This document shows, piece after piece, positions 5,670-46,712 of a stretch of 64,000 bases of DNA (position 1 is the stretch's first letter; each line of letters opens with the position of its first letter). Source of the DNA: Spirochaetota bacterium (GTDB lineage Bacteria > Spirochaetota > UBA4802 > UBA5550). The notes under the pieces were generated by a model. It made no database searches, had not been told where the DNA came from, and saw nothing but the letters and a program-made list of their open reading frames with translations. The stretch lies in contig QKCL01000015.1 of NCBI GenBank assembly GCA_003246895.1, positions 20,795 to 84,794 of the forward strand, written 5' to 3'. The translations under genes and the position numbers were made by a program.

Positions 5670-8600
5670 ATGTATAGTTTAGGAATAAATATCGGATCAT
5701 CCAGCATCAAGGTTGTGCTCATGGATGAGGAAAAAGTTCTCTGGAACAGGGTTGTAGCCCACGAGGGCGACTTTTTAAACACATTAAAGAACGTAATTTC
5801 CTATGATGAAATTCCTTCAGATACTAAGGTTCTTGTGACGGGGACAGAGGGACGCTATCTGGTTAACGCCAACAATGTAATAGAATCAATTTGTATTGAA
5901 GAGGCCATCAGGGATCTTAATCTTAATGTAAATGCCGCAGTTTCTCTCGGGGGAGAAAACTTTATTGTTTATACAACAGATGAGAACGGAAAAATAATTA
6001 CAAGTTTTTCAGGAAACAAATGTGCATCGGGCACAGGTGAGTTTTTCAAACAGCAGCTCGGACGTATGGATATGACGCTTGATGACATCGCCAATGTCAA
6101 AGAAACAGCAAGAGTTTACTCTCTGGCCGCAAGATGCTCTGTTTTCATGAAAAGTGACTGCACGCACAAGCTTAACAAGGGTGAGGCCACCAAGGATGAT
6201 ATAGTCCTTTCTCTGAGTGATGTAATGGCCACAAAGGTTGCGGACTTTCTGAAGCGTGCAAAAATACAAAGCGGAAGAGTACTTCTTTTCGGAGGAGTAA
6301 CAAACAACAGGTTCATTCTGAAATTCATAAAGGAAAAGCTGCCAGAGCTTGAAATAGTAGTTCCTGGAGAAGCCAATTTTATTGAGGCCTACGGTGCAGC
6401 ACTTATGGCTAAGACATCGGGATCTATGCTCCCTGAAGAGAAAAAACTCTTCAAAAAACACAGCATAGGTTTTGGAAGATATCCCAGTCTTCAATCTGCA
6501 CTTGGAAAGGTTAAATATATTGAACCTCAACGCGGAAAGATTAAACCGGGCGGAGAATACATTCTCGGTATTGATGGCGGTTCCACAACCACAAAGGTTG
6601 CACTCATTGACATTGAAACAGATGAAATTGTTGCAGATCACTATGGCCGTACACACGGAGACCCGGTACAGGCTCTGAAAAACTGCCTTATTGAGGTCAA
6701 AAAGCAGATCAGGGAACAGATCGGCGATGAAAAGATAAACATTACACTGGCATCTACAACAGGTTCCTCACGTGAAATTCTCGGTGTATTCATTGAGAGC
6801 CCTGCAATTTATAATGAAATAATAGCCCATGCCACAGGTACAACATTCTTCCAGGAGGATATTGATACAATTTTTGAAATAGGCGGACAGGACGCCAAGT
6901 ACGTCTACCTGAAGAACAAGGTACCAATTGACTATGCCATGAACGAGGCCTGTTCAGCAGGAACTGGTTCTTTCCTCGAGGAATCTGCAGCAGGAGACCT
7001 CAACATCAAGGATGTAAGGGAAATCGGAGATATAGCCCTGAAAGCGGAAGAGCCTCTAAAATTTGGGGAACACTGCTCTGCTTTCATTAACTCTGATATA
7101 AGAAAGGCCATCCAGTATGGAGCAACAAAAGAGGATATCACTGCAGGAATTATTTCATCTATTGTTTCAAACTACCTGAACCGTGTTGTGGGCAACAGAT
7201 CGGTAGGCCAGAGCATAGTACTGCAGGGAGGTGTTGCGAAGAACAAGGCTGTGCCTCTGGCATTTGCCATGCTCCTTGGCAAAAACATAACAGTACCTCC
7301 AAGCCCTGAACTTCTCGGATGCTTCGGAGTTGGAATCCTTGCTAAACAGAAATACCAGGACGGGCTTCTTGAAAAACAATCCTTTGATATAGACAAAATT
7401 CTCGACACAAACATTGTACACGAGCGGGAATTCTCCTGCAAGGCATGCGACAACATGTGCCCGATAAAAGTACTCAATGTCAACGGACATAAATACATGT
7501 TCGGCGGGAGATGCAACAAGTATGCAAATTCCAGAAACCGCAAGGAAGTTGATGAGAAACAGATATTCAACTATGTGGACAGAAGAGAAGAACTCATGTT
7601 CAGGGAAACGGCTCCTGCCGGAGATACATTTATCCAGAAAAAGGATTTTGTAGTCGGAATTCCAAAGGCATTTTCAGTATATACACTCTGGCCATTCTAT
7701 TCATGGTTTTTCCATACACTTGGAATAAAAACTGTACTCTCCACTGATATCAAGCAGGAGGGTATTGCAAAGGTAGAAAGTGCCTACTGTTTCCCTGCGG
7801 AAATTGCTCACGGTGCAGTACAGGATATAATAGACAAGGGAGTGGATTACATCTTCGTTCCGCATTTCAGGGATATGCCAAGCCATGTGAATGATGTACA
7901 CGCAAACTTCTGCCCGATCACACAGAGTCTGCCGTACTACATCAAAAAATCATTCACGGGATTTCCTGAGGAGAAAGTCCTTGCTCCAATTATCACATTC
8001 AAATACGGAAAGAACAAGGCTCTGGAAGATCTATACGCTCTTTCTTCACAGCTTGGAGTTACAAGATCTGAAATCAGGGAAGCATTCAATATAGCACATG
8101 CAAAACAGGAAGAGTTCTTCGCCACATACCACAAGGAAGGGGTAGAGGCCCTTGAACAGGCGCGAAAGGCTGACAGGCCAGTGATAGCAGTTCTGGGAAG
8201 GCCATACAACTCCTTCACAAAAGACGCAAACATGGGAATCCCCAGAAAATTTACAAGCCGGGGATACTCTGTAATTCCATTTGACATGCTCCCATATGAA
8301 GGAGCAGACATATACGACAACATGTACTGGTTCTACGGACAGCAGGACATGAAGGCGGCTTCGCTGCTCAAAAATGAGGAGAATGTTTACGTAACCTATA
8401 TTTCAAACTTCTCCTGCGCTCCAGACTCATTCATGCTCCATTACGTAAAATGGATCATGGGAACAAAACCATTCCTCATTCTGGAACTGGATTCACACTC
8501 TGCAGATGCAGGTGTTGATACAAGAATTGAGGCGTTCCTGGATATTATTGAAGGATACAGGCTGAAGTTCTCAGGAGCGGATGAAGAGAGATACGACAAC

Positions 8601-9980
8601 GGACTCAGGTTCATCAACAACGGCAAAGACCCTCTTCATGTACAGGACATTATAAACAACAGAAGAATTGATATTTTCGGAAACAAAAATGTGAAGCTTC
8701 TTCTCTCCAACATGGGAAGGCTTTCGGTTGAACTTCTCGCAGCCTCACTGAGAGGTATCGGAATAAATTCAGAAGCAATGCCTCTTCCCGATGTATACAC
8801 TCTCCAGGCAGCAAGAAGCTATATGTCAGGCAAGGAATGTCTTCCTTCACAGCTTGTTCTTGGAGCTGCTCTTCAGTACCTGAACTCGGACAAATACAGA
8901 AAGGATGAAACATACCTTTTATTTGTTCCTACAACAACCGGCCCGTGCCGTACAGGGCAGTACTACATATTCTATGAAAACCTTTTCAGAGACCTGAGAA
9001 TAGACAACGTTGTTGTAATCACACTGGACTCTGAAAATTCATACAACGAACTCGGCCAGACTTTCTCAAAAAGCGCCTGGTGGGGAGTCATCGCAGCGGA
9101 TTACATGAAGGATGTTGAAACAGCATTGAGAACATGTGCAGTTGATCCGTCAACGGCCATCGCCAAATACGATGAGCTATGGCAGGACCTAGTTGACATC
9201 GCAGAAGAGAATCCCAAAAAGATGATTCCGGCACTTAAAAAGATTGCTTCAGAAATTTCAAAGATTCCTCTTAAACAGGATGTGAAGGATACACCGAAGG
9301 TTCTGGTTGTAGGAGAGATCTATGTAAGACGGGATGACTTTGCAGTTGATGAACTGGTTCGTCTCATGAGCAAAAAAGGAATCATCGCAAAGGTTTCTGC
9401 AGTAAGTGAATGGATCTACTACACAGACCATGTCAGAAAACACGAACTCATGAAAAGGTATAATCTCCTGCCATGGTACAAAAAACCCTTCTCCAAAGAG
9501 ATGAGGGAGAGAATCGTATGGAAAATTGAAGCCATGTGGAAACACAGTGTGGATAAAAAAGTCAAGGACGCGCTTTCCGCGACAAGACTTATCCCGGGCG
9601 CCCCGCACAACATGACTGAGATCATGGAGAATGCAGAGAAACACTTTGTATCAATGGACCTTGATTCCGAGATTACAATCTCAAGCGGTGTCGCTTCAAC
9701 AGCAATGATGGAAGACTACTCAGGTGTAGTAAACATATCTCCTTTTGCATGCCTCATCGGCCGTGTAATTGAAGGGTTGATCACTCCATGGAGCAGGGAC
9801 AGAAATTATCCGGTCATGTCAGTTGAAATTGACGGAGCAGTTCTGCCTCCAAACATCATCAGCAAACTTGATATTTTCATGCTCAATGTACTTAGATTCA
9901 GGCAGAATCCGGAAAGCCTTAATCTGGTCGAGGAGAATGAGAAATCAGACGATTCAATGTGCAGAAAAATAGTTAAATAG
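5670..9980 (+). CDS. Giant CoA-substrate-specific enzyme activase / 2-hydroxyacyl-CoA dehydratase-like fusion protein (two BadF/BcrA-type ATPase domains plus an HGD-D-like domain)
   Basis: The 1436-aa ORF has two acetate/sugar-kinase-fold ATPase repeats (GINIGSSSIKVV... and GIDGGSTTTKVAL...) with CASGTGEF and CSAGTGSF motifs. A Cys-rich CKACDNMCP segment follows. Confidence 0.65.
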   Translation: MYSLGINIGSSSIKVVLMDEEKVLWNRVVAHEGDFLNTLKNVISYDEIPSDTKVLVTGTEGRYLVNANNVIESICIEEAIRDLNLNVNAAVSLGGENFIVYTTDENGKIITSFSGNKCASGTGEFFKQQLGRMDMTLDDIANVKETARVYSLAARCSVFMKSDCTHKLNKGEATKDDIVLSLSDVMATKVADFLKRAKIQSGRVLLFGGVTNNRFILKFIKEKLPELEIVVPGEANFIEAYGAALMAKTSGSMLPEEKKLFKKHSIGFGRYPSLQSALGKVKYIEPQRGKIKPGGEYILGIDGGSTTTKVALIDIETDEIVADHYGRTHGDPVQALKNCLIEVKKQIREQIGDEKINITLASTTGSSREILGVFIESPAIYNEIIAHATGTTFFQEDIDTIFEIGGQDAKYVYLKNKVPIDYAMNEACSAGTGSFLEESAAGDLNIKDVREIGDIALKAEEPLKFGEHCSAFINSDIRKAIQYGATKEDITAGIISSIVSNYLNRVVGNRSVGQSIVLQGGVAKNKAVPLAFAMLLGKNITVPPSPELLGCFGVGILAKQKYQDGLLEKQSFDIDKILDTNIVHEREFSCKACDNMCPIKVLNVNGHKYMFGGRCNKYANSRNRKEVDEKQIFNYVDRREELMFRETAPAGDTFIQKKDFVVGIPKAFSVYTLWPFYSWFFHTLGIKTVLSTDIKQEGIAKVESAYCFPAEIAHGAVQDIIDKGVDYIFVPHFRDMPSHVNDVHANFCPITQSLPYYIKKSFTGFPEEKVLAPIITFKYGKNKALEDLYALSSQLGVTRSEIREAFNIAHAKQEEFFATYHKEGVEALEQARKADRPVIAVLGRPYNSFTKDANMGIPRKFTSRGYSVIPFDMLPYEGADIYDNMYWFYGQQDMKAASLLKNEENVYVTYISNFSCAPDSFMLHYVKWIMGTKPFLILELDSHSADAGVDTRIEAFLDIIEGYRLKFSGADEERYDNGLRFINNGKDPLHVQDIINNRRIDIFGNKNVKLLLSNMGRLSVELLAASLRGIGINSEAMPLPDVYTLQAARSYMSGKECLPSQLVLGAALQYLNSDKYRKDETYLLFVPTTTGPCRTGQYYIFYENLFRDLRIDNVVVITLDSENSYNELGQTFSKSAWWGVIAADYMKDVETALRTCAVDPSTAIAKYDELWQDLVDIAEENPKKMIPALKKIASEISKIPLKQDVKDTPKVLVVGEIYVRRDDFAVDELVRLMSKKGIIAKVSAVSEWIYYTDHVRKHELMKRYNLLPWYKKPFSKEMRERIVWKIEAMWKHSVDKKVKDALSATRLIPGAPHNMTEIMENAEKHFVSMDLDSEITISSGVASTAMMEDYSGVVNISPFACLIGRVIEGLITPWSRDRNYPVMSVEIDGAVLPPNIISKLDIFMLNVLRFRQNPESLNLVEENEKSDDSMCRKIVK

Positions 9981-10001
9981 ATAAAAGAAACATAATCTAA
10001 T

Positions 10002-10033
10002 AAAAAAGGGATACCAATGTATCCCTTTTTTAT
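10002..10033 (+). terminator. Rho-independent terminator after the activase gene
   Basis: The sequence is AAAAAGGGATAC-caatg-GTATCCCTTTTTTATT. Confidence 0.7.
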
Positions 10034-10392
10034 TATCCGGTAAATTCAGCACTGCTCAACTTTCCTGAAATATCTGTACTCTGGCACCTGGAAAATTCAG
10101 GGTGTATAGCAGGCTATAATCTTCCTGCCCGGAACACTGAGGGCAATTACATTCTCCGATACTTTTTTATATCTGTCTTCTTTCATATCTATGTCTCTGG
10201 CACCATCACTGCTGATAACTGTATTTTATCTTTTATCGCGATAAATATTAAACTGTTTTGCGTATTTCAGATTTATTCTTATACCAAAATTTTATGTTTT
10301 CTTTCTTCTGTACAATTTATCAAAAATACAACGGTAAATATAGCAAAAAAATAGTATAGTTGATATTATATCAGTAACACATTTTTCCACAC

Positions 10393-10424
10393 AAAAAAGG
10401 GCTGCTATAAAGCAGCCCTTTTTT
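10393..10424. terminator. Bidirectional hairpin terminator; it serves the FecR-like gene on the minus strand
   Basis: The sequence AAAAAAGGGCTGC-tataa-GCAGCCCTTTTTT has A/T runs on both sides. Confidence 0.7.
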
Positions 10425-10449
10425 ACATCGGCTATAAAAAGAGATCATT

Positions 10450-11493
10450 TTACTCGTTCTTTTTGAACATGTTCTTTTTATAGTCCTCCAGATTTTTGAA
10501 GATATTAGACTTATCTTCCTGATATTTGTTCATGATTTTCTCGTAGGCTTCTTTATATTGTGCCTTTATTTTTTGCACTGCTTCATAGCTTTTCTGTTGT
10601 TCACTTCTTACATTCTCAGATTTATCTGCTATTTTTTCAAATCTTTCAGATATATCTTTTCCCTCATAATCCCTTGAAAGATTTCTCATATTCATATTCG
10701 ATGCTTCATTCATCATCATGTTATTTTCAATTTTATCTTCAGCTTGTTCAATAGCTTCACCAGATTTTTTCACATCCTCTTCGGACTTCATTTTTTTTAT
10801 ATTATTTTCAAGGCCGGAAAGATTCTCATTCGATTCCTTGACAGAATCCTCCCACGAATTTATCTGTTTTTCATAACGCTCAGCCTGCTGATCAATATTC
10901 TTTGCGATATCGCTGTTTCTGTTTTTTTCCCAGGAAGATATTGAACCACGGGTTTTTACTCTCTCAGGCATTTCAGAGACCTTTGTCTCAACTGAATAGC
11001 CGGGTTTAAGGTCGACGTTGCCATAACTGTTATCTATAGCCAATCTTCCCTGAGAAAGATCAATCTTCGTATCTCCTCCCTTGCTCACAGCAATATTAAA
11101 TCTTGTTCCTCTAACACCGGCAACTGTTGTGGGTGTATAGAGTTTGTGTTTACCCTTTTTGAGCTTCACAAATTTTCCGCTTATCTGACCGGAAACAATA
11201 GAGACCCCCTCTGAATCCTTTACATTTTCACTCCCGATTTTTACAACAGTATTTGGTTTAATACTGACTTTACTCTTATCGGAATATAGAAGATCAACAA
11301 TGGCTCCACGGCCTGTTTTAATTACATCTCCGTTCCCTACTTTATCCCCCATTGCCAGCTTAACAGTTTTACCACCCCTTACCAAATTTACATCTCCAAG
11401 GAAAAAAGAAACTGTCATACTATATGCAAATACAGGTATAAATAGAAGAAAGGCTGCTATTATAAAAAAGAATCTTACCCTGTTTTTCATCAA
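10450..11493 (-). CDS. Secreted FecR-domain protein with a long charged coiled-coil C-terminal region
   Basis: It has a signal peptide and an N-terminal FecR-like beta region (GDVIKTGRGAIVDL...). Its C-terminal 170 aa are rich in K, E and N. Confidence 0.45.
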   Translation of the reverse strand: MMKNRVRFFFIIAAFLLFIPVFAYSMTVSFFLGDVNLVRGGKTVKLAMGDKVGNGDVIKTGRGAIVDLLYSDKSKVSIKPNTVVKIGSENVKDSEGVSIVSGQISGKFVKLKKGKHKLYTPTTVAGVRGTRFNIAVSKGGDTKIDLSQGRLAIDNSYGNVDLKPGYSVETKVSEMPERVKTRGSISSWEKNRNSDIAKNIDQQAERYEKQINSWEDSVKESNENLSGLENNIKKMKSEEDVKKSGEAIEQAEDKIENNMMMNEASNMNMRNLSRDYEGKDISERFEKIADKSENVRSEQQKSYEAVQKIKAQYKEAYEKIMNKYQEDKSNIFKNLEDYKKNMFKKNE

Positions 11494-11596
11494 TAAGCTC
11501 CAATATTGTATTTATTTGATTATACATTAAGCCTTCTGAAATTACAACTATTTTATAGACTTAATCGCAGTCATATCACCAATAAAGAATGTTTTA

Positions 11597-11965
11597 TCAC
11601 TTCAAAGATAGACCCTTTATTATTATTTCAGCAGTTCCAATATTAGTCGCAAGCGGAATATTATGAACATCACAAATTCTCATAAGCATATTAATATCAG
11701 GGTCATGGGGGTGTTTCCCAAGGGGGTCTCTTAAAAAAATTACAGCTTCAATTTTACCCTCTACAACATCAGAGGCAATCTGCGCATCACCACCGAGCGG
11801 ACCTGATTGAACTCTCCTCACCTGGAGCCCGGCTTTTTCAATATGACTTCCTGTAGTTCCTGTTGCGACCAGATCATACTGTGACAGGAAATCCCAGTGA
11901 TCCTTCACAAATGCAACCATCTCCGCCTTTTTCCCATCATGGGCTATAAGTGCGATCTGCCTCAT
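11597..11965 (-). CDS. mgsA: Methylglyoxal synthase
   Basis: A 122-aa protein with [17 protein letters not shown] and [13 protein letters not shown] motifs. Confidence 0.85.
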
Positions 11966-12079
11966 TTTTCCCTCCTTAATTTGACAATTATCTTTATAAG
12001 GCTTTAGCTTTTATTATCAATTATTATTTATCAATTATTATTTGACACAATGATCCCAAAAAGTTGTTAAAAGAGAGAT

Positions 12080-13303
12080 ATGAGCAAGAAATATGATGTA
12101 ATAATAATCGGAGCCGGGCCGGCAGGACTGTTTGCAGGGCTATCTATTAATGGAAAAAAATTTAAAACCCTTATAATTGAAAAGAAACAGACTCCCGGCA
12201 AGAAACTGCTACTATCCGGTGGCGGACAATGCAATTTCACAAACTCATCTGAAATCAGGGAATTCAACGTCAGATATAATAACAAAAATTTTGTCACTCC
12301 CTCCCTCCGATCCTTCAGCAACAATGATCTGATCGACTTTTTAGATAAAAAATGTTTTAAATCCCTTATCAGGGATGACGGCAAGGTTTTTCCTGAAAGT
12401 GCCAGAGCTTCTGACTTAGCAGACCTTTTCGTGAGGCTCAATATTGAAAACGGTGTAGATATTATCTCTGGCACCGATGTTAAATCTGTTTCAAGAGATG
12501 AGGAATGCTTTAACATTACAACCTCTGGCACCTCCTATAATTCACGATATCTCATAATCGCTACCGGTGGAAAATCATATCCCCAGACCGGTTCAGACGG
12601 CACCGGATTTAAACTTGCGGAGATGCTCGGACATTCAATAACTGTATTAAAACCGTCTCTGGCACCTGTTTTCATTAAAAACCATAAACTCATGGAATTA
12701 TCGGGTATCTCATTTAACAATGCAAAAATTGATCTGTACAGGAACAACACCAAAACCGGATCCTTTACCGGAGAACTCCTGATCACACACAAAGGCTTTT
12801 CCGGTCCCGCAATATTAAACAACAGCAGATATATGGAAAATCTTGACCTTCTTAAAATTTCATTTACCGGAAAAAATTTTGAAGAAACTGACCAGATTCT
12901 TCAGGCAGGAAGAAACAATAGTGGAAAACAAAGTGTTAAAAAATTTTTACAGATTTTAAATATTCCCGAAAGGCTTATACTGTTTATTCTGAATACATTA
13001 GAAATAAGCCCTGGAGCCCAGGTTTCGCAGCTTTCAAGAGAACAAAGAATATCTCTGGCACGTTATCTGTCAGAATACCCATCAATAATTAATATGGTTG
13101 GAGATTTCTCCAGCGCAATGGCTACATCAGGAGGAGTTTTGACTTCTGAAATAAACAAAAAAACAATGGAATCCAGAATATGCCCCGGTTTATATTTCGC
13201 AGGTGAAGTACTTGATATTGACGGAGATACCGGCGGATACAACATTCAGTGGGCCATATCATCAGGCAGGCTTGCTGCAATGTCAATTTCAGGAACAGGA
13301 TAA
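12080..13303 (+). CDS. HI0933-family FAD-dependent flavoprotein (aminoacetone oxidase / BaiN-like)
   Basis: An N-terminal YDVIIIGAGPAGLFAG Rossmann motif and a C-terminal GEVLDIDGDTGGYN motif; length 407 aa. Confidence 0.7.
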   Translation: MSKKYDVIIIGAGPAGLFAGLSINGKKFKTLIIEKKQTPGKKLLLSGGGQCNFTNSSEIREFNVRYNNKNFVTPSLRSFSNNDLIDFLDKKCFKSLIRDDGKVFPESARASDLADLFVRLNIENGVDIISGTDVKSVSRDEECFNITTSGTSYNSRYLIIATGGKSYPQTGSDGTGFKLAEMLGHSITVLKPSLAPVFIKNHKLMELSGISFNNAKIDLYRNNTKTGSFTGELLITHKGFSGPAILNNSRYMENLDLLKISFTGKNFEETDQILQAGRNNSGKQSVKKFLQILNIPERLILFILNTLEISPGAQVSQLSREQRISLARYLSEYPSIINMVGDFSSAMATSGGVLTSEINKKTMESRICPGLYFAGEVLDIDGDTGGYNIQWAISSGRLAAMSISGTG

Positions 13304-13410
13304 AGCGGTCTCTGGCACCAAATCTCCACTTCTCTCCGACCGCGTTCTCTGGCACCAGACTCAAAAACAGTCTATAATTTCCCAAATTATTAACTTTCTC
13401 TGGCACCCTG
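13300..13410 (+). repeat. Three direct copies of TCTCTGGCACC in about 100 bp, immediately upstream of the RAYT gene
   Basis: The copies are GGTCTCTGGCACCAAA, CGTTCTCTGGCACCAGA and CTTTCTCTGGCACCCTG, at about 13305, 13339 and 13394. Confidence 0.7.
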
Positions 13411-13474
13411 CAAAAATATTTCTCCAAAACTTAGTTAGAAAGCGTAAAACAATAAACAGAATTTAAAAAGACTT

Positions 13475-14083
13475 ATGGGACGAAAGCACAGAGAAACAAT
13501 AACAGGCGCAACATATCATATTTTTTCACGCTGCATTTCGAGACTTGATCTCTTGAAAAGCAGCTGGATAAAGGATCTATTTCTGCAGGTCATTTCCGAA
13601 ACACAGGAAAAATATGAATTTGAACTGAATACCGTCATTATACTGGACAATCATTTTCACATGGTAATCAGAACCACCTCTTCCTGTGACACAATTTCAC
13701 TGATCATGCAGAGAATAAAATCTGTTTTTGCAAGGAGATATAACAAAATTCATTCAAGAACCGGACCTTTCTGGAACGAACGCTTTGGACATAAAATAGT
13801 AGAAAAAGCTAAAGATATCGTCAAATACACTATTCACCTGCTCTGGTATGCCGCATACAACAGTGTCCGTAAAGGAACAGTTACTGACCCTAGAAATTAT
13901 AAATACAGTTCAATAAATGCCTATCTAGACAAAACCTTCAAATTCCCTCTCAAAATAACGCGTCACAAAATATTCAAGAATTTAGGACGGACATTTAAGG
14001 AACGGACAGAAAAATTTTTAGAGTATGAGAGCATTTACAAAGAATATTTGTCAAAAAAGACTTTAAGTGACCTTAAATTTTAG
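13475..14083 (+). CDS. tnpA: IS200/IS605-like Y1 (HuH) transposase of the REP-associated tyrosine transposase (RAYT) type
   Basis: A 202-aa protein with a HuH motif (NHFHMVIRT) and conserved YHIFSR and FWNERF blocks, with Tyr-containing helices near the C-terminus. Confidence 0.65.
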   Translation: MGRKHRETITGATYHIFSRCISRLDLLKSSWIKDLFLQVISETQEKYEFELNTVIILDNHFHMVIRTTSSCDTISLIMQRIKSVFARRYNKIHSRTGPFWNERFGHKIVEKAKDIVKYTIHLLWYAAYNSVRKGTVTDPRNYKYSSINAYLDKTFKFPLKITRHKIFKNLGRTFKERTEKFLEYESIYKEYLSKKTLSDLKF

Positions 14084-14402
14084 AAATACACTCATGTCTA
14101 CAGACCAGGCCCTCCCACTACTTCGCTTATTATTGCACCATATCTGAGTCCATTGGCTATGATGTCTGGCCTCAATTTTGTAATAACAGGAGTTGCTTCT
14201 TTAGGACCTTTTAATGTTATGACATATGGACTGCAGTTTGCCTGATTTCAGTTATGAAGGAGACAGGCATGGATGCCTTATGCAAAACTATTAAGAACAT
14301 TCCGTTATGCTTTTTGCAGGCAGTCATCGTGTCTGCACTGCCTTCGATTTCATGATGAAAAGGAGGCGGCTGACACACCCACCTATATCTTACTGCAAAC
14401 CT

Positions 14403-16367
14403 CTAGTTTTCAAAAATCCCCATGAGTTCCCTGTAACTGCGTGAAAGGGACGGCAGGTCCCTTACCCTTACCCCGTCGGGGAGTGATTCAAGAAATGATG
14501 AACCGTACCCCTTTGAAAGAATGCGCGGGTCAAGTACTGCAACTATCCCCTTGTCTGTTTCATTTCTGATGAGGCGGCCCGCACCCTGTTTCATCTTTAT
14601 GACGGCTTCGGGTATCTGAAGATCAAAGAATGAATTCTTCCCCTGCTGTTCAACCTTTTCTATGCGGGCCTTCATTATTGGAGTGTCCGGAACCGAAAAT
14701 GGAAGCCTGGTAATTATTACACCCTTGAGAAGGTCGCCGGGCAGGTCTATCCCCTGCCAGAACGAGTGGGTCCCCATTAGAACTGATCCCCTGTTTGCAA
14801 TGTATGCGGAGATTGCACCTGATGCGCTGAGTTCATCCTGGGAGAATATTCTGTTCTCTATGTTTCTCTGAAGAAGATGTTTTACTGTACGGAGCAGGCT
14901 GTATGATGTGAAGAGCACAAGACAGTTGCCGTCTACTATTCGTATTATCTCCGCTATTACGGACGAGATTTTTTCAGGGAATGATAAGCTGTTGGGCTCA
15001 GGGAGTTCCCGGTCTGTGTAGAGGAGCATCTGTTTTTTGTAGTCAAAGGGTGACTTCAGCATGATGGCCTTCCCCCGGCTGAAACCGACGCGGCCCGAGA
15101 AATAGGAGAAGTCATTCTTAACAGAAAGAGTGGCAGAGATGAACACAGATGATTCATAGAATGAGTATACCTCACTCTGCATTATTTCGTTTATGTTCAC
15201 GGGCCTTGCAATGGCCCTGACATTGCCCAGAAGTTCATCCGAGCTTCTCTCTATCCAGTAGACAAAGGAATCACGGTTCAGGTCCAGAAAGAATTTCAGG
15301 GCCTCTGTATATGCGGTGATCTTGTTCTTTGCAGGTTCAAATTCCAGAACTGTATCCTCTTCGTCAAAGTCATTTTCTGCCCGTACAATGAGTTCAAGGA
15401 ACTGGGACAGGAGCGACAGAAATTTCTGCCCCATGTTGACTTTATGGGTGATGCGCAGAACATTGTTCTTTTCAGGGAACAGGTCACGGAGCTGTTCAAA
15501 GAATTTCTGGCCCTCTTTAAGTATCTTGTCTATGAAGTTTATGGCTTCCTGCTGTGTTATTGTGTCCTTGAATGAATAGACGAGGCCGAACTTCCCCTTC
15601 ACATGGAATCTTGACATTATGTTTGCCAGGAGTTTGTGGTCTATGCTGAATCCAAGCTGACCCGAAGCGATTGTTTCAACCGAGTGTGCCTCATCAAAGA
15701 GTACAGCTTCCGTCACGGGCAGGTATGCCTTGCCTGATGCGACATTTGAAAAGAACAGGTAGTGGTTCATGACCAGAATATCAGACTGAGACCATTCCCT
15801 CTTTGCAGCCTGAAAGGGGCACTGTCTGGAATAGGGACATTTCTGGTGGCTGCATGCGTCGGGGTCACGGTTTATCTCCTCCCAGAACTCTCCGGGGCAC
15901 CCTGTGTCAAAGAATGTGAATATGCGCATTTCAGTGAATAGTCTGGAGATCTTTTTCACAAATATCATGTTTCCCTGGCTGAACTGGCCCTTTTTCACTG
16001 CCTTTTCAAAACGCCTTCTGCATGGGTAGTTGGAGCTTCCTAGGCAGAGTGAATATTTGAAATCAAGTCCAAGCTCCTCCTGGCATATCTTCTGCACTAT
16101 GGGCAGGTCCTTGTCCAGGAGCTGTTTCTGGAGCGCCTTGGTTTCAGTGGATATGGCTACACGCTTCCCCTTTGAGAGACTGTAGAGTATGGCCGGAAAA
16201 AGGTATGCCATGCTCTTGCCTGTACCGGTCCCTGCCTCAACGATTCCGTTTTCCGAAGATTCAAGGCGGTCCAGTATGAATTGTGCCATTCTGAGCTGGC
16301 TCTCCCTGTACCTGTATGAGGGCAGGTTCCGGTCGAGTGAGCCTGATGTTTTAAAGATATTGTCCAT
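14403..16367 (-). CDS. dinG: ATP-dependent DNA helicase, DinG/Rad3 (XPD-like) family
   Basis: A Walker A motif (AGTGTGKS), a DEAH-like FDEAHS box and an Fe-S Cys cluster (C...CPYSRQCPF), followed by a C-terminal helicase-C_2 region. Confidence 0.7.
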   Translation of the reverse strand: MDNIFKTSGSLDRNLPSYRYRESQLRMAQFILDRLESSENGIVEAGTGTGKSMAYLFPAILYSLSKGKRVAISTETKALQKQLLDKDLPIVQKICQEELGLDFKYSLCLGSSNYPCRRRFEKAVKKGQFSQGNMIFVKKISRLFTEMRIFTFFDTGCPGEFWEEINRDPDACSHQKCPYSRQCPFQAAKREWSQSDILVMNHYLFFSNVASGKAYLPVTEAVLFDEAHSVETIASGQLGFSIDHKLLANIMSRFHVKGKFGLVYSFKDTITQQEAINFIDKILKEGQKFFEQLRDLFPEKNNVLRITHKVNMGQKFLSLLSQFLELIVRAENDFDEEDTVLEFEPAKNKITAYTEALKFFLDLNRDSFVYWIERSSDELLGNVRAIARPVNINEIMQSEVYSFYESSVFISATLSVKNDFSYFSGRVGFSRGKAIMLKSPFDYKKQMLLYTDRELPEPNSLSFPEKISSVIAEIIRIVDGNCLVLFTSYSLLRTVKHLLQRNIENRIFSQDELSASGAISAYIANRGSVLMGTHSFWQGIDLPGDLLKGVIITRLPFSVPDTPIMKARIEKVEQQGKNSFFDLQIPEAVIKMKQGAGRLIRNETDKGIVAVLDPRILSKGYGSSFLESLPDGVRVRDLPSLSRSYRELMGIFEN

Positions 16368-16396
16368 TAAGGATGAATCGTGCCTTCCTGAAAATT

Positions 16397-16867
16397 TTAT
16401 CTCTTTGTATTTCTCCTGATAAATTCAGCAAGGCCTTTTTTGATTATTATGAACAGTACAATAAATATGATGAGGGCAATGACAGGGAAAAGATATGCCA
16501 GAATGTTCGGGTTATCCATGAACCGGTCGATCTCCTTCCCGAACTTCTCTTTTATTGTTATTACAATGGAGGAGATTATTACTATTGCCACGTATAAAAA
16601 GCTGAATGGGCCGGTTTTTCTGTTCTCCTCCTGTTCTGTATTATTTTCATCTTTCTTTACGGGAATGTCTGAAATACCCTTGGGGGAGGCCTTTCCGTTC
16701 TCATTCCGGGTTGGAAAAATTTCATTCATCTCAGGAAATCTCTCCTTCAGAGAACCTTTTCCCGGAGCATTGAGTCCTCCGCAGTTGCCGCAGAGCACCC
16801 GTTTTGCGCCTTCAGGAGCGCTGAGACTGTTTCCGCAGTATCTGCAGTTAAAATCTATTATCCTCAT
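16397..16867 (-). CDS. Membrane protein with an N-terminal zinc ribbon
   Basis: CRYCGN...CGNCGG pairs, then a TM helix. It lies upstream of the dinG-like gene in the same orientation. Confidence 0.35.
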   Translation of the reverse strand: MRIIDFNCRYCGNSLSAPEGAKRVLCGNCGGLNAPGKGSLKERFPEMNEIFPTRNENGKASPKGISDIPVKKDENNTEQEENRKTGPFSFLYVAIVIISSIVITIKEKFGKEIDRFMDNPNILAYLFPVIALIIFIVLFIIIKKGLAEFIRRNTKR

Positions 16868-16967
16868 AATTTACCACCCCGTTGTTCTGACTGTTTTAAT
16901 ATATTAAATACAGATTCCATTGCCAACCCTGAATGGGGGATAATTTTTTATTGATAAAATCGGTTTC

Positions 16968-18704
16968 ATGAGTATTATAATTTTATTCATATTCAGGAGT
17001 ATTCTTTTGAAATCTTATCTCTCCACAAAAAAAATCATATTTACAGCAGCGGCACTGTTTCTGTTTCAGTGCTCTCTTTTTGCAGACACAGTAAATGATC
17101 AGGAAAAGGCTGCTGGGATTATTACTCTGGCACCGGCACTCTTTACCTTAATTGTTGCGGTAATTTCCAGAAGGGCGGTTCTTTCAGTGGCTGCCGGGGC
17201 ATTTCTGGCTTCTGTTATTTTTCAGTTCAGGTCTGCCGGGGTTCTTCTTGCTCTGCCCTTCGGGATATCGGGCCTCATGTCCGGTATTGTCAGGGCAGTT
17301 GCCGATCCATGGAACTGCGGGCTTCTCTTTTTCTTCCTCTCCATGGGAGGGCTCTATTCGGTTCTGAGCAAATCTGGCGGTTTAAGCGCAATTGCTGCAT
17401 ATATGGAGACCAGATCAAGGTCACAGAGTTCTGCACAGGTATTTGCTTTTCTCATGGGATTCATCACATTCTTCGAGGAATTTGCAAGCCCCATGATAAC
17501 AGGTACGGTAATGGCAAGGGCTTTTGACCGCATGAAAATTTCCAGGGAGAGGCTGGCATTCATCGCCGACTCAATGTCCGTTCCCCTCACGGGCATTATG
17601 ATATTCTCCACATGGACAATGTACGAGATGGGTGTCATATACGCGGCGGGGGAGTCAATGAAAACCGGATTTGATGTAATGACTCTCTTTATAAAGACAC
17701 TGCCCTACAAGATCTATCCTATTCTCATGATTGTCTTTACATTTGTATCGTGCAGGTCTCTGAGGGATTTCGGGCCCATGAAGAGGGTTCAGATCAGGTG
17801 CGCTGAATCAATGCCTGGAGAAGAGCCTGAAAACACGGAAAACGCTGAAGAGAGCACCGGACCTCTTCAGGATCAGTGCACAGTTCCACGTATGTCATCT
17901 CTCTTCATACCGGTTGGATTTTTTATTGCAGCTTCACTTGCAGGGCTCATTATGGGAGGCATTAATAATATAAGCAAGTCGGGTGAAATCTCCTCTGTTT
18001 TTTCAAGGAGAGGGATAGTGCACGTCATGGGCTCTGCAGATGTCACCATTGTACTTTTTCAGGCGTCCCTGTTTACGCTTCTTGTTTCGGTTATACTAAT
18101 GCATCTCAGGGGTATTATGAACCCGTCCAGGGCTTTCTCATACTGGGTCAGGGGTGTGAAGTCGGTTCTTCCTGCAGCTCTTCTGCTTGTTGTTTCATGG
18201 GTATTTGTCAATATCATGAAAGACCTGGGTACGGTTGAGTACACTGGAAGAATGATGATAAACTTTTCAGCAGGACCGATGACACCTGTCATGATTTTCA
18301 TGATTTCATTCCTTGCTGTTTTTCTGACAGGCGCACCATTCGGGGCAATGGCCTTCATGCTTCCGGCATCGGTTGCAGTTGCGGTCATGAGCCCTCTCAC
18401 AATTGAGGTGAACCTTCCCCTTTATCTGGGCGCTTCAATGTCCGGTATCATTATGGGGGAACATTCATCGTTTTTTTCGAACAGCACAATACTTTCATCT
18501 GCCGGGGCAAAGTGCAGGCATGTGAATCATTTTATTACACAGCTTCCCTACTCACTCACAGTGGGGATTATTTCCGCTGTGGCATTTTTTATACCTGCAG
18601 GTTACGGTGTGCCTCTCTGGGTTATTCTGCCCGTATCAGCAGCACTGACCGCAGGTGTGGTACTTATTGCAGGCAGAAGGCCTGAAGGATATGACTATTA
18701 CTGA
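16968..18704 (+). CDS. NhaC-family Na+/H+ antiporter-like membrane transporter
   Basis: A 578-aa polytopic protein with NhaC-like segments (FEEFASPMITGTVMA, SMSVPLTGIMIFSTW). Confidence 0.5.
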   Translation: MSIIILFIFRSILLKSYLSTKKIIFTAAALFLFQCSLFADTVNDQEKAAGIITLAPALFTLIVAVISRRAVLSVAAGAFLASVIFQFRSAGVLLALPFGISGLMSGIVRAVADPWNCGLLFFFLSMGGLYSVLSKSGGLSAIAAYMETRSRSQSSAQVFAFLMGFITFFEEFASPMITGTVMARAFDRMKISRERLAFIADSMSVPLTGIMIFSTWTMYEMGVIYAAGESMKTGFDVMTLFIKTLPYKIYPILMIVFTFVSCRSLRDFGPMKRVQIRCAESMPGEEPENTENAEESTGPLQDQCTVPRMSSLFIPVGFFIAASLAGLIMGGINNISKSGEISSVFSRRGIVHVMGSADVTIVLFQASLFTLLVSVILMHLRGIMNPSRAFSYWVRGVKSVLPAALLLVVSWVFVNIMKDLGTVEYTGRMMINFSAGPMTPVMIFMISFLAVFLTGAPFGAMAFMLPASVAVAVMSPLTIEVNLPLYLGASMSGIIMGEHSSFFSNSTILSSAGAKCRHVNHFITQLPYSLTVGIISAVAFFIPAGYGVPLWVILPVSAALTAGVVLIAGRRPEGYDYY

Positions 18705-25821: not shown

Positions 25822-26422
25822 TCTTTTCTATGACAAAGAAGCCGTACTGTGAAAAGAGGTTGGGAATTAATCTGCGGATTCTGGATTTTTTGCCGCTTGT
25901 GAAACAGAAACCTTTCTCCCTGACTATTCTGAACCTGAATTTTTTTGACATGTTCCTGAAGTCCTTTATTGTGAGCAGGTGAATATTCGGTGATTCATAC
26001 CACTCATAGGGGAGAAGCCTGTTCACGGGCATTCTTCCGAGCAGAAGCAGGCTGAATCTGGTGCTGATGTAGCCGAAGTTCGGGAAACTGAGTATCACTC
26101 TCCTTCCAATTCTGAGAACCTCTTCAATTACATGGTCAGGGCGCTTTGTATTCTGAATGGTCTGGTTTATTATTACGAAGTCAAATGAATTGTCAAGATA
26201 GTCGCTTAACCCTTCGTCGATGTCTCCCTGGTAGCAGTAGAGGCCCTTTTCAACACACATTGTCACACCCTCTTCGGAGATCTCCACACCAGAGCCCTTT
26301 ACATCCTTCTCATCCTGCAGCATTTCAAGGAGAACTCCGTCGCCGCATCCAAGGTCAAGGACCTTTGAACCTTTGTCTATTTCATTGATTACAAGATCGT
26401 ATCCGATTCTCTGGTATTTCAT
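25814..26422 (-). CDS. metW: Methionine biosynthesis protein MetW
   Basis: A SAM-methyltransferase-like motif (VLDLGCGDG); 202 aa; it directly follows metX. Confidence 0.8.
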   Translation of the reverse strand: MKYQRIGYDLVINEIDKGSKVLDLGCGDGVLLEMLQDEKDVKGSGVEISEEGVTMCVEKGLYCYQGDIDEGLSDYLDNSFDFVIINQTIQNTKRPDHVIEEVLRIGRRVILSFPNFGYISTRFSLLLLGRMPVNRLLPYEWYESPNIHLLTIKDFRNMSKKFRFRIVREKGFCFTSGKKSRIRRLIPNLFSQYGFFVIEKIS

Positions 26423-27567
26423 TTGCCTGTACTCTTTTTAAATTCATTTTTAAGAAAACTCGAAATGTTTTTTTCGAGTGTTTTATTTGGCAGGAGAAAG
26501 GCATCATGTCCGTTCTCCGTATCTATTTCATTGAAATTTACATTTTTCCCTGTAATCCTCAGGGCCTGTACAACCTTCTTTGCCTCAGCCGTTGGATAGA
26601 GCCAGTCAGTATTAAAGCTGATAATGAGAAAATTTGCCTTAGCCTTTTCAAATGCTTCAGTGAGCCTGCCGCGGCCGTTGTCGTTGAGATCAAAATAGTC
26701 AATGGCCCTTGTTATATAGATGTATGAGTTCGCATCGAATCTGTCTACGAATTTTACCCCCTGATAGTGAAGGTATGATTCTATGCTGAACTCGGAATCC
26801 ATGTTTTTCTTTGACATGTTGTCACTCTGAAAGTTTCTTCCGAATCTCTCGTGCATGTGTTTTTCGCTCATGTAGGTGATGTGGCCGATCATCCGTGCAA
26901 GTGAGAGTCCGGCACCGGGAAATTTTGAATCGTAGTAGTTGCCGTGATTCCAGTTGGGGTCATTGATTATTGCCTGACGGCCTACTTCATTGAATGCAAT
27001 TCCCTGCGCAGAAAGAGAAGCCGAGGCTGCGATGCAGATACATGAGTTTATCATTTCAGGGAATGTTATGGACCACTGAAGGGCCTGCATCCCGCCCATG
27101 GATCCCCCTGCAACGGCGAGAAGTTTTTCTATGCCCAGATACTTTACAAGGTGGTACTGGGCCCTGACCATATCCTCAATTGTTACGATGGGAAAATCCA
27201 TTCCCCATTGTTTCCCGGTTTCAGGATTAATTGACGCAGGCCCTGTGGAGCCGGAGCAGCCCCCTATTACGTTTGAACATATGAAGAAGTATTTATCTGT
27301 GTCGAATGGTTTCCCCGGGCCGATGTATCCATCCCACCAGCCGGGATTTTTACCTGTAGTGTCATTGCAGCCTGCAGCATGTGCATCTCCTGAAAGAGCA
27401 TGAAGAATGAGCACTGCATTGTTCTTCTCTGAGTTGAGTGTGCCGTATGTCTCATAGGCAAGTGTGACCGGGCCTATACTTCTTCCGCAGAGCAGATTGA
27501 AGCCTCCGTTCTCTGCAAAGGTAAAAAATTCAGTTGTAAGCCCGCCTGGTGAATTTGTTATTTCCAT
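26419..27567 (-). CDS. metX: Homoserine O-acetyltransferase
   Basis: An alpha/beta-hydrolase fold with the nucleophile elbow GGSMGG; 382 aa; in a metXW operon. Confidence 0.85.
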   Translation of the reverse strand: MEITNSPGGLTTEFFTFAENGGFNLLCGRSIGPVTLAYETYGTLNSEKNNAVLILHALSGDAHAAGCNDTTGKNPGWWDGYIGPGKPFDTDKYFFICSNVIGGCSGSTGPASINPETGKQWGMDFPIVTIEDMVRAQYHLVKYLGIEKLLAVAGGSMGGMQALQWSITFPEMINSCICIAASASLSAQGIAFNEVGRQAIINDPNWNHGNYYDSKFPGAGLSLARMIGHITYMSEKHMHERFGRNFQSDNMSKKNMDSEFSIESYLHYQGVKFVDRFDANSYIYITRAIDYFDLNDNGRGRLTEAFEKAKANFLIISFNTDWLYPTAEAKKVVQALRITGKNVNFNEIDTENGHDAFLLPNKTLEKNISSFLKNEFKKSTGK

Positions 27568-27602: not shown

Positions 27603-27720
27603 ATAAAAAAACTGCTGTCTCATCTTCCGGAAAAATTCCGCTGGATTTAGCACCTTTTCATCAGAAGGTTGCCGTGGTTTTTGCGGGCCAGTTCCCTACA
27701 CCACTCTTGATAAGACAAAA
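27603..27720 (-). promoter_or_regulatory. SAM-I (S-box) riboswitch in the metX leader
   Basis: The minus-strand RNA reads CUUAUCAAGAGUGGUGUAGGGAACUGGCCCGCAAAAACCACGGCAACC...AAGGUGCUAAAUCCAGCGGAA...GGAAGAUGAGACAGCAG-UUUUUUU. This matches the conserved SAM-I core blocks. Confidence 0.8.
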
Positions 27721-43251: not shown

Positions 43252-43335
43252 TGCCGTGAGAGGGACTCGAACCCTCACAGGAGTACTCCCACCAGACCCT
43301 GAACCTGGCGCGTCTACCAATTCCGCCATCACGGC
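43252..43335 (-). tRNA. tRNA-Leu (anticodon CAG)
   Basis: Minus-strand RNA: GCCGTGATGGCGGAATTGGTAGACGCGCCAGGTTCAGGGTCTGGTGGGAGTACTCCTGTGAGGGTTCGAGTCCCTCTCACGGCA. 7-bp acceptor stem, D-loop GGAATTGGTAGA, loop TTCAGGG, long variable arm, TPsiC GGTTCGAGTCC. CCA not encoded. Confidence 0.8.
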
Positions 43336-44460: not shown

Positions 44461-44805
44461 CTTATTTCTCCTTAATTATGCCTTTTTTTGAGGCTGATTT
44501 TTCATTGTTTCAGGTTTTCTGCTGCAGCCGGTTTCAGGTTCTTGTTAAGTACTCCGGCACCTTGCTGCGGCCTTTCTGTTTTTTATCGGTACTCTGGCAC
44601 CAAAAACAGACCGGTAATTAATTAAATGAATCCATACAAAAGAGTCAATAAAAAATTGGGGTCTATACAGAGTATTTGTATGAGTCGAACAGTATAAATT
44701 CAAGGTCTGATGGACATTGTTAAAAGTGGGTAATCCCTATCTAACATCATAAATAAATCCTCCAGTAATATTATTATCGTCTAATACTGAAGATTTACAC
44801 AGTTA

Positions 44806-44920
44806 CTCTGACACTCCCTCAATTTGATGCTCGGGAGTGCCAATTTGACCCAACTGTGCATCGATTTAACCAAACGGTGCGTCGATTTAGGGAGTGTCAG
44901 GAGAGTGTCAGATTTTTTGT
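44806..44920 (+). other. Structured inverted-repeat element: an 11-bp perfect inverted repeat closing about 70 nt, followed by a T-run. A candidate sRNA or MITE-like element.
   Basis: CTGACACTCCC (44808-44818) pairs with GGGAGTGTCAG (44890-44900). Inside are direct repeats TGCATCGATTTA / TGCGTCGATTTA. It is followed by GAGAGTGTCAG and TTTTTT. Confidence 0.4.
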
Positions 44921-45126
44921 ACCCTGGGGCATAATAATGTAGATAGCCTTTGATTCATATTAAATCTGCACTCTACCTTCAAAGTGAATTGCGAATTGAT
45001 TCAAAGCAAGACCCCAATCCAGAACAGGCCTGGTCCATTTTCTGGAGGCCTTATCCAGAGCAAGACAAATTACTTTTACAATCTGCATTGTAATTGCAGT
45101 TTTACAAAACTGCTTAAATACGCTCA

Positions 45127-45150
45127 TTTTCTTTGCTCGCCCAAAGAAAA
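45127..45150. repeat. Hairpin TTTTCTTTG-ctcgcc-CAAAGAAAA, member 1 of a shared hairpin family
   Basis: A 9-bp perfect stem. Confidence 0.5.
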
Positions 45151-45363
45151 CGAGCCAAAAGAAAAGGGCTCTGCCTCAGGCGCCGGCAGGGGCTACCACC
45201 TCACATGCCGGTGAGGCTTACATAAAGAAACCTAAACATTTCATACTCACGATTCTCTTTATATTCTAAACTGGTGGGTCTTTTTGTGTTTCTGGACTGG
45301 TTCTGTTCGGGTTTGTATCGTCGTCCTGACGGACAAACCCGGCTAGGGCGTCCTGCCCAAGCT

Positions 45364-45504
45364 CTATTTATTGCGCTGCTTAACTGTTTTGAAAAAACTA
45401 TTTATGCTATCCTGCAATTGGGCAACCGGTTGACTTAGTCGCACCAACCCATTCTTTACCTCATATTTCATGTGGAACTCTCGGTGTTTTGATTTAACGA
45501 CCAT
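45364..45504 (-). pseudogene. C-terminal remnant paralogous to the 111-aa gene at 45726-46061
   Basis: The remnant reads ...REFHMKYEVKNGLVRL... against ...HKEFLMEYEVKKGFELI... in the intact gene. A TGA lies just upstream, so no full-length ORF remains. Confidence 0.45.
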
Positions 45505-45674
45505 TTCACCAGATTTTTTTCATCTTTTAAAGCCCATTTTTACTAAAAGTAGTCAATCATCCGCTGAAGGCGGATACATCTTTCAGCCAGAGTTTCGAAG
45601 CTATTTCGAAGAAATACTCGAAACTTCTGTGCCATAGCCTCCCGTGGCGACTGAACGGGCGCCCTTTCTTTTCG

Positions 45675-45706
45675 CCTATTTTCTTTGGGCGAACAAAGAA
45701 AATAGG
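45675..45706. repeat. Hairpin CCTATTTTCTTTG-ggcgaa-CAAAGAAAATAGG, member 2; 13-bp stem
   Basis: It shares the core TTTTCTTTG/CAAAGAAAA with the hairpin at 45127. Confidence 0.5.
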
Positions 45707-45725
45707 CACCCCCCGAGCAGCCTGT

Positions 45726-46061: not shown

Positions 46062-46143
46062 GTGACGGCAATTCCTTTGTGTTTATTGATTGCCATTTAA
46101 GTTGTCAAGTATTTCATAATACTGTAGGATAGTATCGAATTGT

Positions 46144-46440: not shown

Positions 46441-46712
46441 GTATTTGTACTCCCCCCATTTTCAAGAGCTGTTTTAAACAGAAACTATGCTACCTTAATT
46501 ACCGAAGGGTAGTATCTATTTCTTCATCCCTTCCTTCCCATTGCCTGCCATGGTCTCCGGCACACCATTACTTACCATGTATCTCCACCCTTTTTCAAGC
46601 TATTATTTAACCATAACATGAGATCTCTCCTTACACATTTACACAAAATTTTCCATTTAATGTTAATGTTCCCTCCCCTGTTTTTCGTTATATATACAAA
46701 TGGAGGCAACAT

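Follow-up and report, generated by a model that had tools for sequence, protein, structure and literature searches.

A strand-biased 10-mer clustered around a Y1/HUH transposase gene in a Spirochaetota genome is probably the core of a RAYT/TIRYT-type repeat family

We analyzed a 64-kb stretch of the genome of a Spirochaetota bacterium (GCA_003246895.1; contig QKCL01000015.1, positions 20,795 to 84,794), referred to here in its full length of 64,000 nucleotides as the window, in which the 10-mer CTCTGGCACC recurs around a gene for a Y1/HUH single-strand DNA nuclease-transposase (window positions 13475 to 14083, + strand). The 10-mer is probably the conserved core of a repeat family that belongs to this gene, in a Spirochaetota counterpart of the gene-plus-repeat systems known as REPtrons and TIRtrons. 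We favor this explanation because the motif accompanies the gene at many loci in several phyla, and the link between them is further supported by a syntenic relative that has no Y1 gene and lacks the motif. The link itself was shown both statistically and comparatively. A RAYT-associated repeat that spread at the DNA level was among the options listed by the original prediction, which was made from the sequence alone, and it is the option that the data support: the motif tracks Y1/HUH genes and is missing where the syntenic relative lacks one.

Ten exact copies of CTCTGGCACC lie on the + strand of the window (starts at 10079, 10195, 12466, 12523, 12657, 13310, 13347, 13398, 17125, and 44592), versus 0.06 expected from 100 dinucleotide shuffles, none of which gave 10 copies. 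It is the commonest 10-mer of the window, and its reverse complement has no exact occurrence there. Nine of the 10 copies are confined to 7 kb (10079 to 17134) around the Y1/HUH gene, and the tenth is the copy at 44592. The original prediction had counted at least nine copies, all on the top strand, and both the excess and the uniform orientation (10 of 10) were reproduced; its sites were real, but its positions were off by 0 to 6 nt. Four more + strand copies carry one mismatch (13053, 25595, 41815, and 44552), compared with approximately 1.3 such matches expected by chance per strand of the window (a mean of 2.6 over the two strands in shuffles). They include the predicted near-copy at 13053, which reads CTCTGGCACG, and two of the predicted CTCCGGCACC variants, which lie at 41815 and 44552. 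Of the more distant sites, the predicted copy at 44590 is exact and starts at 44592, but that placed at 25598 is a one-mismatch TTCTGGCACC at 25595, and a third CTCCGGCACC variant placed at 46548 is a two-mismatch CTCCGGCACA at 46553. The consensus ends at approximately 11 nt ([T/A]CTCTGGCACC, with T or A preferred just 5′ of the motif). A longer consensus element, for which an alignment of the flanks had been proposed, did not emerge: beyond approximately 11 nt, the flanks of the copies are unrelated.

The Y1/HUH gene encodes a protein of 202 amino acids (aa) of the RAYT/TIRYT type. Pfam Y1_Tnp (PF01797) matched it with an E value of 7.7e-13. The RAYT model of NCBIfam (NF047646; REP_Tyr_transpos) scored 77.9 bits, just under its cut-off of 80, and was still the best-scoring family; the NCBIfam IS200 model (32.7 bits) did not reach its cut-off of 55. 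The closest solved structure is that of Escherichia coli TnpA-REP (4ER8; E = 7.5e-7). The HuH motif (H60-x-H62), the catalytic Y125, and N129 are invariant in a cross-phylum alignment (A1), and the intact HuH motif and catalytic tyrosine argue for an active nuclease, as far as can be judged from sequence. This is the only Y1 copy in the window. As the original prediction had stated, three direct copies of CTCTGGCACC stand directly upstream of the gene; this proximal cluster (13310 to 13407, + strand; 13310, 13347, and 13398) precedes the ATG (13475) by 165, 128, and 77 nt, and the copy nearest the gene occupies a position typical of the family (−75 to −190 in relatives).

With a spirochaete-only alignment (A2) as the profile, we retrieved 80 metagenomic loci (70 distinct) containing Y1 homologues at 44 to 65% identity. 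In nearly all of the nearest relatives (57 to 65% identity), exact CTCTGGCACC copies with the same orientation as the gene lie 90 to 400 nt upstream of it, interspersed with CTCTGACACC and some copies in inverted orientation, and remoter relatives have CTCTGACCCC, GCTCTGACCCC, or CTCTGACACC at −75 to −105; the motif variant shifts with the Y1 subfamily. At many loci, a copy in inverted orientation also stands at the stop codon (i.e., the classical bracketed layout), and others have direct copies approximately 200 nt downstream. In about 15 homologous loci, the gene is bracketed by such a stop-codon copy together with an upstream copy at approximately −80. Copy orientation is mixed in the other Y1 loci. 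No conserved neighbor besides Y1 was found in the 80 loci, the one exception being a weak FecR-like match (32% identity, L161).

To quantify the association, copies of CTCTG[GA]C[AC]CC were counted on both strands of the 70 distinct loci, with permuted motifs of the same composition as controls. There were 143 copies within 400 nt of the Y1 gene (2.6/kb; permuted mean, 0.18 copies), 66 copies at 0.4 to 3 kb (0.33/kb; permuted mean, 1.7 copies), and 29 copies beyond 3 kb (0.09/kb; permuted, 2.8 copies), the last still being about 10 times the controls. The permuted motifs had densities of 0.003 to 0.008/kb around Y1 genes. Copies accumulate on either side of the gene, and because motif density falls with distance from Y1 in homologous loci, the local cluster in the window is typical of the family. 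Whether copies sit near RAYT genes had been proposed as a check, and they do so across about 70 independent loci in several phyla.

The association was also recovered in the opposite direction, from motif to gene. A set of 185,579 genomes, one per species, was scanned for the pattern motif-N20-50-motif with no protein information, which yielded at least 120 loci. When these loci were searched with the window Y1 protein by tblastn, homologues were detected in seven among the matches listed. The seven comprise a Spirochaetota metagenome-assembled genome (MAG; 49% identity) and two Treponema MAGs (L112, L118, and L110), a Planctomycetaceae MAG (L036), Aliidiomarina shirensis (L092), and an Acidobacteriaceae MAG (L115), the last being counted twice for its two tandem Y1 genes. 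These Y1-bearing loci span four phyla, and by our own reckoning well under one Y1 gene would be expected by chance in the approximately 0.9 Mb of pattern loci. In L115, which is bracketed as well, each Y1 gene is preceded at a distance of 45 nt by the exact 10-mer and followed closely on its 3′ side by an inverted copy. A further Planctomycetota locus (L105) gave a weak partial Y1 match only (E = 4e-4 over 83 aa). Many of the at least 120 loci are unrelated coding or noncoding tandem repeats that hold the 10-mer by accident.

Four termite-gut Treponema MAGs contributed 17 of the pattern loci. In these MAGs, GTCTCTG[GA]CACC occurs in long degenerate tandem arrays with periods of 15 to 62 nt and lengths of up to approximately 1.2 kb (L014:1800-2300; L082:5780-6990, − strand; L024:3590-3900; L118:6270-6440). 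Most of the arrays have no Y1 gene in their 8-kb loci. Dispersed arrays of this kind suggest proliferation of the motif unit. Exact 10-mer arrays with short spacers were also seen in MAGs of Acidobacteriota, a delta-proteobacterium, and Myxococcota (L098:4836-4941, L009:6195-6480, L055:2260-2480, and L076:7781-7953); judged by eye, they are apparently noncoding. Two other loci (L095 and L106) have the 10-mer inside coding tandem repeats, apparently by coincidence. As for the gene, two Y1 loci occur on one metagenomic contig (L179 and L183; Ga0208695_1000028) with near-identical upstream regions, and the Acidobacteriaceae MAG has a tandem duplicate (L115:1757-3314); because some genomes hold two, Y1 is not always a single-copy gene.

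The closest homologue of the HI0933-family flavoprotein gene that precedes Y1 in the window is located on a 105-kb contig from a related organism (L204 and L205). This contig is syntenic with the window at approximately 1 to 23 kb and 31 to 47 kb, and its neighboring proteins are 45 to 96% identical to those of the window. This relative has no Y1 gene, and its 37 kb of syntenic sequence contains no exact CTCTGGCACC and one CTCTGACACC; the matching stretches of the window contain 10 exact copies of CTCTGGCACC and one inverted CTCTGACACC. At the intergenic sites of the relative that correspond to motif-bearing sites of the window, the motif is absent.

Gene content differs between the window and the relative at four places (differences that are unpolarized), and all four carry motif copies in the window. 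The first lies between the BcrAD and FecR genes, where a gene for a periplasmic binding protein (Peripla_BP_2) is found in the relative and two copies are found in the window. At the second, five genes separate the flavoprotein and helicase genes of the relative, in contrast to the Y1 gene and three copies in the window. Between orf156 and a flotillin gene, the window has antiporter and AFOR genes that are absent from the relative, with a copy inside the antiporter gene. Between o128 and o150, an alkaline phosphatase gene of the relative has as its counterpart in the window a 2.25-kb stretch poor in open reading frames (ORFs), which opens with the 44552/44592 pair. With about 22 intergenic regions compared, we estimate the chance that three intergenic clusters all fall in the four breaks at roughly 0.006. 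As a separate observation, Rhomboid and Sel1 homologues (55 to 58% identity) are present in the window at 49475 to 50104 and 50987 to 52039 (− strand); the corresponding genes of the relative sit between the flavoprotein and helicase genes, the site of Y1 in the window. The window homologues may be relocated genes or paralogues.

Copies within genes were compared with homologous sequences. The flavoprotein gene (12080 to 13303, + strand) contains three exact copies (12466 to 12666, + strand; 12466, 12523, and 12657), which are read as S-G-T, S-G-T, and S-L-A(-P), and the one-mismatch CTCTGGCACG (13053 to 13062, + strand), which is read as S-L-A-R. When the four flavoprotein sites were aligned with 15 homologues, no insertion was found at any site. 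Sites 1 and 2 are in variable protein segments, and site 3 encodes the conserved peptide PSLAP, whose codons in the window (TCT CTG GCA CCT) differ from those of the syntenic orthologue (TCA CTT GCT CCT). The use of two reading frames, as the original prediction had noted for the exact copies, the presence of copies between genes, and the unrelated codons of the orthologue at the same sites exclude a codon or peptide explanation; ordinary conservation, which had been named as a refuting outcome, is likewise not seen in the comparison with the orthologue. Judged from these alignments, the intragenic copies of the flavoprotein gene arose by substitution, without insertions or deletions (indels). 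More generally, 51 of the 96 copies located more than 400 nt from Y1 genes in the 70 loci are in stop-to-stop ORFs of at least 150 aa, which is fewer than the 89% coding background would give and far above the approximately 4 expected by chance (our own estimate, from the permuted-motif means multiplied by the coding fraction). The host genes checked have clear Pfam domains and encode a methionine synthase, a CN hydrolase, a radical SAM enzyme, and a molybdopterin oxidoreductase.

The flavoprotein itself is only 54% identical to its syntenic orthologue (L204:10001-11221), versus 72 to 89% for most neighbors and 45% for orf156. Faster evolution of the flavoprotein beside Y1 was considered and rejected, its identity to outgroups being 48.5% for the window and 45.9% for the relative. 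Xenologous replacement in either genome is a possible source of the divergence.

E. coli TnpA-REP and IS608 TnpA cut single-stranded DNA at their own sites. By analogy, the Y1 protein would recognize the motif on single-stranded DNA and cut within or beside it via Tyr125, and an A/T-rich tract after the proximal copy may aid DNA melting. Rejoining of the ends would let short motif-bearing units multiply, as in the termite treponeme arrays, and cutting and rejoining would promote insertions and deletions at motif sites. A Y1 protein acting preferentially near its own gene would leave copies within a few kilobases and produce the decay with distance. A recombination target, which was another of the options originally listed, stays compatible with the data as a consequence of such a Y1 system.

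Several observations weigh against a repeat family of the Y1 gene as the explanation. The chief unexplained point is that the indel-free intragenic copies are not accounted for by simple insertion of a mobile unit, which fails for the flavoprotein copies because their sites show no indels relative to orthologues. Only about 10 to 11 nt are conserved, and the copies have no hairpin: no inverted repeats were found at them, and six motif regions folded as single-stranded DNA gave z scores of +0.6 to −2.0, with no shared or unusually stable structure. The original prediction was therefore right to set the copies, most of which it called nonpalindromic, apart from classical REPs (repetitive extragenic palindromes). 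The missing hairpin counts against the explanation because characterized Y1 enzymes read a hairpin together with a guide sequence. Moreover, the Y1 gene is not bracketed in the window, unlike that of a typical REPtron or TIRtron, since no copy lies between its stop codon and the next gene, even with two mismatches allowed. No transcription-strand bias was found for the intragenic copies (21 sense versus 24 antisense), nor was a replication-strand bias found when majority orientation was compared with GC skew in 12 loci (rho = −0.41, P = 0.19; sign test, 6:6). Finally, cleavage and rejoining at the motif are attributed to the Y1 protein by analogy with TnpA-REP and IS608 TnpA.

A more far-reaching possibility, which we regard as unlikely, is that the Y1 enzyme, together with its 10-nt site, acts in cis to remodel its own neighborhood, as a device for local gene shuffling and not as a selfish repeat that disperses. 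Exact copies would be seeded into adjacent housekeeping genes by substitution-type conversion and not by insertion, for instance by way of short single-stranded products that anneal at the replication fork, and segments between motif copies would be gained, lost, or exchanged. Such a system would account for the motif at every synteny break against the Y1-less relative.

The main rival to a Y1-associated repeat family is regulatory, and we consider it distinctly improbable: the motif would be a double-stranded operator or promoter element that controls Y1 and is bound by Y1 or another regulator, with the other copies serving as extra or decoy sites. The layout upstream of Y1 would suit such a role, given that the proximal copy has a fixed place upstream of the start codon and is followed by a T-run and a CGTW box (41 of 42 loci). 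The box lies 25 to 69 nt (mode, 30 to 34 nt) after the motif and 25 to 59 nt, mostly 30 to 49 nt, before the ATG; its counterpart in the window, identified from the relatives' loci, is CGTAAAAC (13443 to 13450, + strand). The T-run follows the proximal copy at a nearly fixed distance in 32 of 42 loci. Both features fall before the start codon, within 13408 to 13474 in the window and in the matching region of L122 to L201. The box and the T-run could be a promoter, a cleavage site, or a DNA-melting element. CTGGCA and CTGACA within the motif are also similar to a −35 hexamer, and a promoter was scored at one copy: a consensus scan (10/12) found a candidate sigma-70-like promoter of the Y1 gene at 13349 to 13378 (+ strand; CTGGCA, 18-nt spacer, TATAAT), whose −35-like hexamer falls within the second copy of the proximal cluster, although this call is a pattern match only and such matches are no more numerous in the region than in shuffles. 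Helix-turn-helix (HTH) tails are borne by some TIRYT proteins (PMC6006769). However, motif copies in the family are also located 3′ of the gene, in neighboring housekeeping genes, and in tandem arrays far from Y1, which a purely regulatory role leaves unexplained. The window Y1 protein gave no HTH hit, even at an E value of ≤1 on the C-terminal 75 aa, and its conserved catalytic residues speak for a nuclease rather than a regulator.

The remaining alternatives detach the motif from Y1. It might be a hotspot or target for insertions and rearrangements by other recombination systems, in which the Y1 gene happened to land. The motif copies at four of four synteny breaks are in keeping with this, as is the report that REP sequences are targets of insertion sequences (PMC8450116); it is nevertheless very unlikely, given that the variant tracks the Y1 subfamily, that about 70 loci of unrelated context have the motif at a fixed distance from the Y1 start, and that the Y1-less relative lacks the motif at the same intergenic sites. 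Even less credible is a genome-wide signal unrelated to Y1, such as an uptake sequence, a Chi- or KOPS-like signal, or a sigma-54 −24 box (TGGCAC). The motif is short, strand biased in the window, and tolerated in coding sequence by substitution, and it contains TGGCAC, but 9 of its 10 copies occupy 7 kb of the 64-kb window, its density decays from Y1 in 70 loci, it is absent from the syntenic relative, and its orientation is mixed in other loci. The steep decay and the change of motif between Y1 subfamilies likewise leave the uptake or genome-wide recognition sequence of the original prediction unsupported. A sigma-54 promoter (TGGCAC-N5-TTGC, with GG and GC 10 nt apart) was rejected, a GC at the −12 spacing being present in 1 of 10 copies only; moreover, CTCTGACCCC of the relatives lacks TGGCAC. 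Finally, the 10-mer does occur in coding tandem repeats of unrelated genomes (L095 and L106), but the idea that it arose by chance or as a by-product of coding repeats has a negligible probability. It is already refuted by the window count (10 copies versus 0.06 expected), the zero reverse complements, and the density relative to permuted motifs in Y1 loci, and the copies lie between genes, in two frames, and within unrelated flanks.

Among known systems, the closer class is TIRYT/TIRtron rather than the canonical palindromic GTAG-REP, as judged from sequence features. TIRYT/TIRtron is the name that Di Nocera et al. (2013; PMC3733652) gave to RAYT-like genes whose flanking inverted repeats are not REPs and in many cases share GGGGWSAS; the repeat families are moderately abundant and occur as dimers or clusters. 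Quentin et al. (2018; PMC6006769) took TIRYT to be subclass 2.1 of TnpAY1, the main subclass, for which no REPs were reported. The present case shares with TIRtrons a RAYT-like Y1/HUH gene in single or low copy number and short non-REP repeats that are single, dimeric, or clustered and moderately abundant. TIRtrons also occur in Acidobacteria and Planctomycetes, where the exact 10-mer adjoins Y1 genes here. GGGGWSAS is matched by the family motif when it is read as its reverse complement (GGGGTCAGAG; likewise in the form GGGGTCAG), whereas the window core GGTGCCAG departs at positions 3 and 5 (2 of 8); GGTGTCAG is an intermediate core, off at position 3 only. Similarly, the window variant GGTGCCAGAG is two positions off, and GGTGTCAGAG is an intermediate form. 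The window departs from the class in that its copies are all direct and none is 3′ of the gene, so that the gene is not bracketed by terminal inverted repeats there. Unlike subclass 2.1, the protein has no detected C-terminal HTH (Bac_DnaA_C, HTH_23, or HTH_28), is 202 aa long versus a median of 238 aa, and has Y125-AAY-N129-S in place of Y-x3-NP. The TIRtron papers (PMC3733652 and PMC6006769) do not describe a Spirochaetota lineage or report decay of copies into neighboring coding genes.

REPtrons (E. coli and Pseudomonas; REP/BIME/REPIN) have in common with this system the enzyme superfamily, including the nearest solved structure (4ER8), a co-evolving repeat family clustered around the gene, and inverted dimers, which are seen here in Y1 relatives (L122, L124, and L092). 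REPs, however, are imperfect palindromes of 20 to 40 nt that begin with a 5′ GT[AG]G head and are dispersed between genes in hundreds of copies, whereas the core here is approximately 10 nt, without GTAG or a hairpin, and its copies are concentrated near the gene. Inverted repeats on both sides of the gene, which many homologous loci have, are missing from the window. With the IS200/IS605 family (IS608 and ISDra2), the similarity lies in Y1 HUH chemistry on single-stranded DNA and short specific end and target sequences; unlike that family, there are no identical multicopy elements, subterminal hairpins, or tnpB here, and the motif flanks are unrelated. DNA uptake sequences (Neisseria DUS and Pasteurellaceae USS) are also motifs on the 10-mer scale that are gained in genes by tolerated substitution, but they are spread evenly genome-wide and tied to no gene, in contrast to the density decay from Y1. 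Searching full texts with the motif strings turned up nothing but unrelated papers and primer sequences.

In the window, Y1 is preceded by genes for a BcrAD/DUF2229 activase (5670 to 9980, + strand), a FecR-domain protein (10450 to 11493, − strand), an MGS-like protein (11597 to 11965, − strand), and the flavoprotein, and it is followed by a DinG/YoaA-like helicase gene (14403 to 16367, − strand), a 156-aa ORF (orf156; 16397 to 16867, − strand), and a Na+/H+ antiporter gene (16968 to 18704, + strand). Two direct exact copies (10079 to 10204, + strand; 10079 and 10195) lie between the convergent terminators of the BcrAD and FecR genes, in a 370-nt spacer bracketed by terminator-like perfect hairpins at 9998 to 10035 and 10393 to 10424 (17-bp and 14-bp stems); no ORF and no Rfam hit were found in this spacer. 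The exact copy at 17125 to 17134 (+ strand) is 157 nt into the antiporter gene, beside the synteny break. On the − strand, a one-mismatch inverted copy (CTCTGGCACT; 12398 to 12407) was found by mismatch scan 58 nt upstream of the copy at 12466. The centroid DNA fold pairs the two, with a z score of only −2.0, and the inverted copy may be a chance match.

The distal pair, CTCCGGCACC (44552) and exact CTCTGGCACC (44592), spans 44552 to 44601 (+ strand) at the left edge of the ORF-poor stretch. A small inverted-repeat element follows (44806 to 44900), with 16-nt arms at 44808 to 44823 and 44885 to 44900 (94% complementary); its ends carry the variant CTCTGACACT, and this variant and its position suggest that the element belongs to the motif family. 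The small ORFs of the 2.25-kb stretch (44461 to 46712) gave no significant match to Pfam, the best (E = 0.007) falling short of the curated cut-off, and the stretch also contains a 21-nt tandem repeat (44843 to 44889). Elsewhere in the window, a second strand-skewed oligomer, CCGGTTTCAGG, has four exact and six one-mismatch copies on the + strand between 21895 and 48797 and three copies on the − strand, versus 0.87 expected; it is dispersed and shows no relation to the Y1 motif. An S-adenosylmethionine (SAM) riboswitch (84.6 bits; 27617 to 27716, − strand) upstream of the gene at 26419 to 27567 and a tRNA-Leu(CAG) gene (43252 to 43335, − strand) are ordinary features.

We conclude that this locus is a well-supported example of the known RAYT/TIRYT class of gene plus repeat and not a new kind of system. 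As a new member of that class, it belongs to a spirochaete lineage and has an unusually short, nonpalindromic core that is conserved across phyla; also noteworthy are the all-direct orientation, the indel-free intragenic copies, and the motif at every synteny break. TIRYT-type Y1 proteins are widespread but still lack a demonstrated substrate or function. The motif offers a sharply defined 10-nt candidate recognition sequence, kept in Spirochaetota, Acidobacteria, Planctomycetota, and Gammaproteobacteria, for which a binding and cleavage assay would be easy to design. If confirmed in closer genome pairs, the distance-decaying copies, the indel-free intragenic copies, and the match between motif and synteny breaks would show how enzymes of this type shape the DNA that surrounds them.

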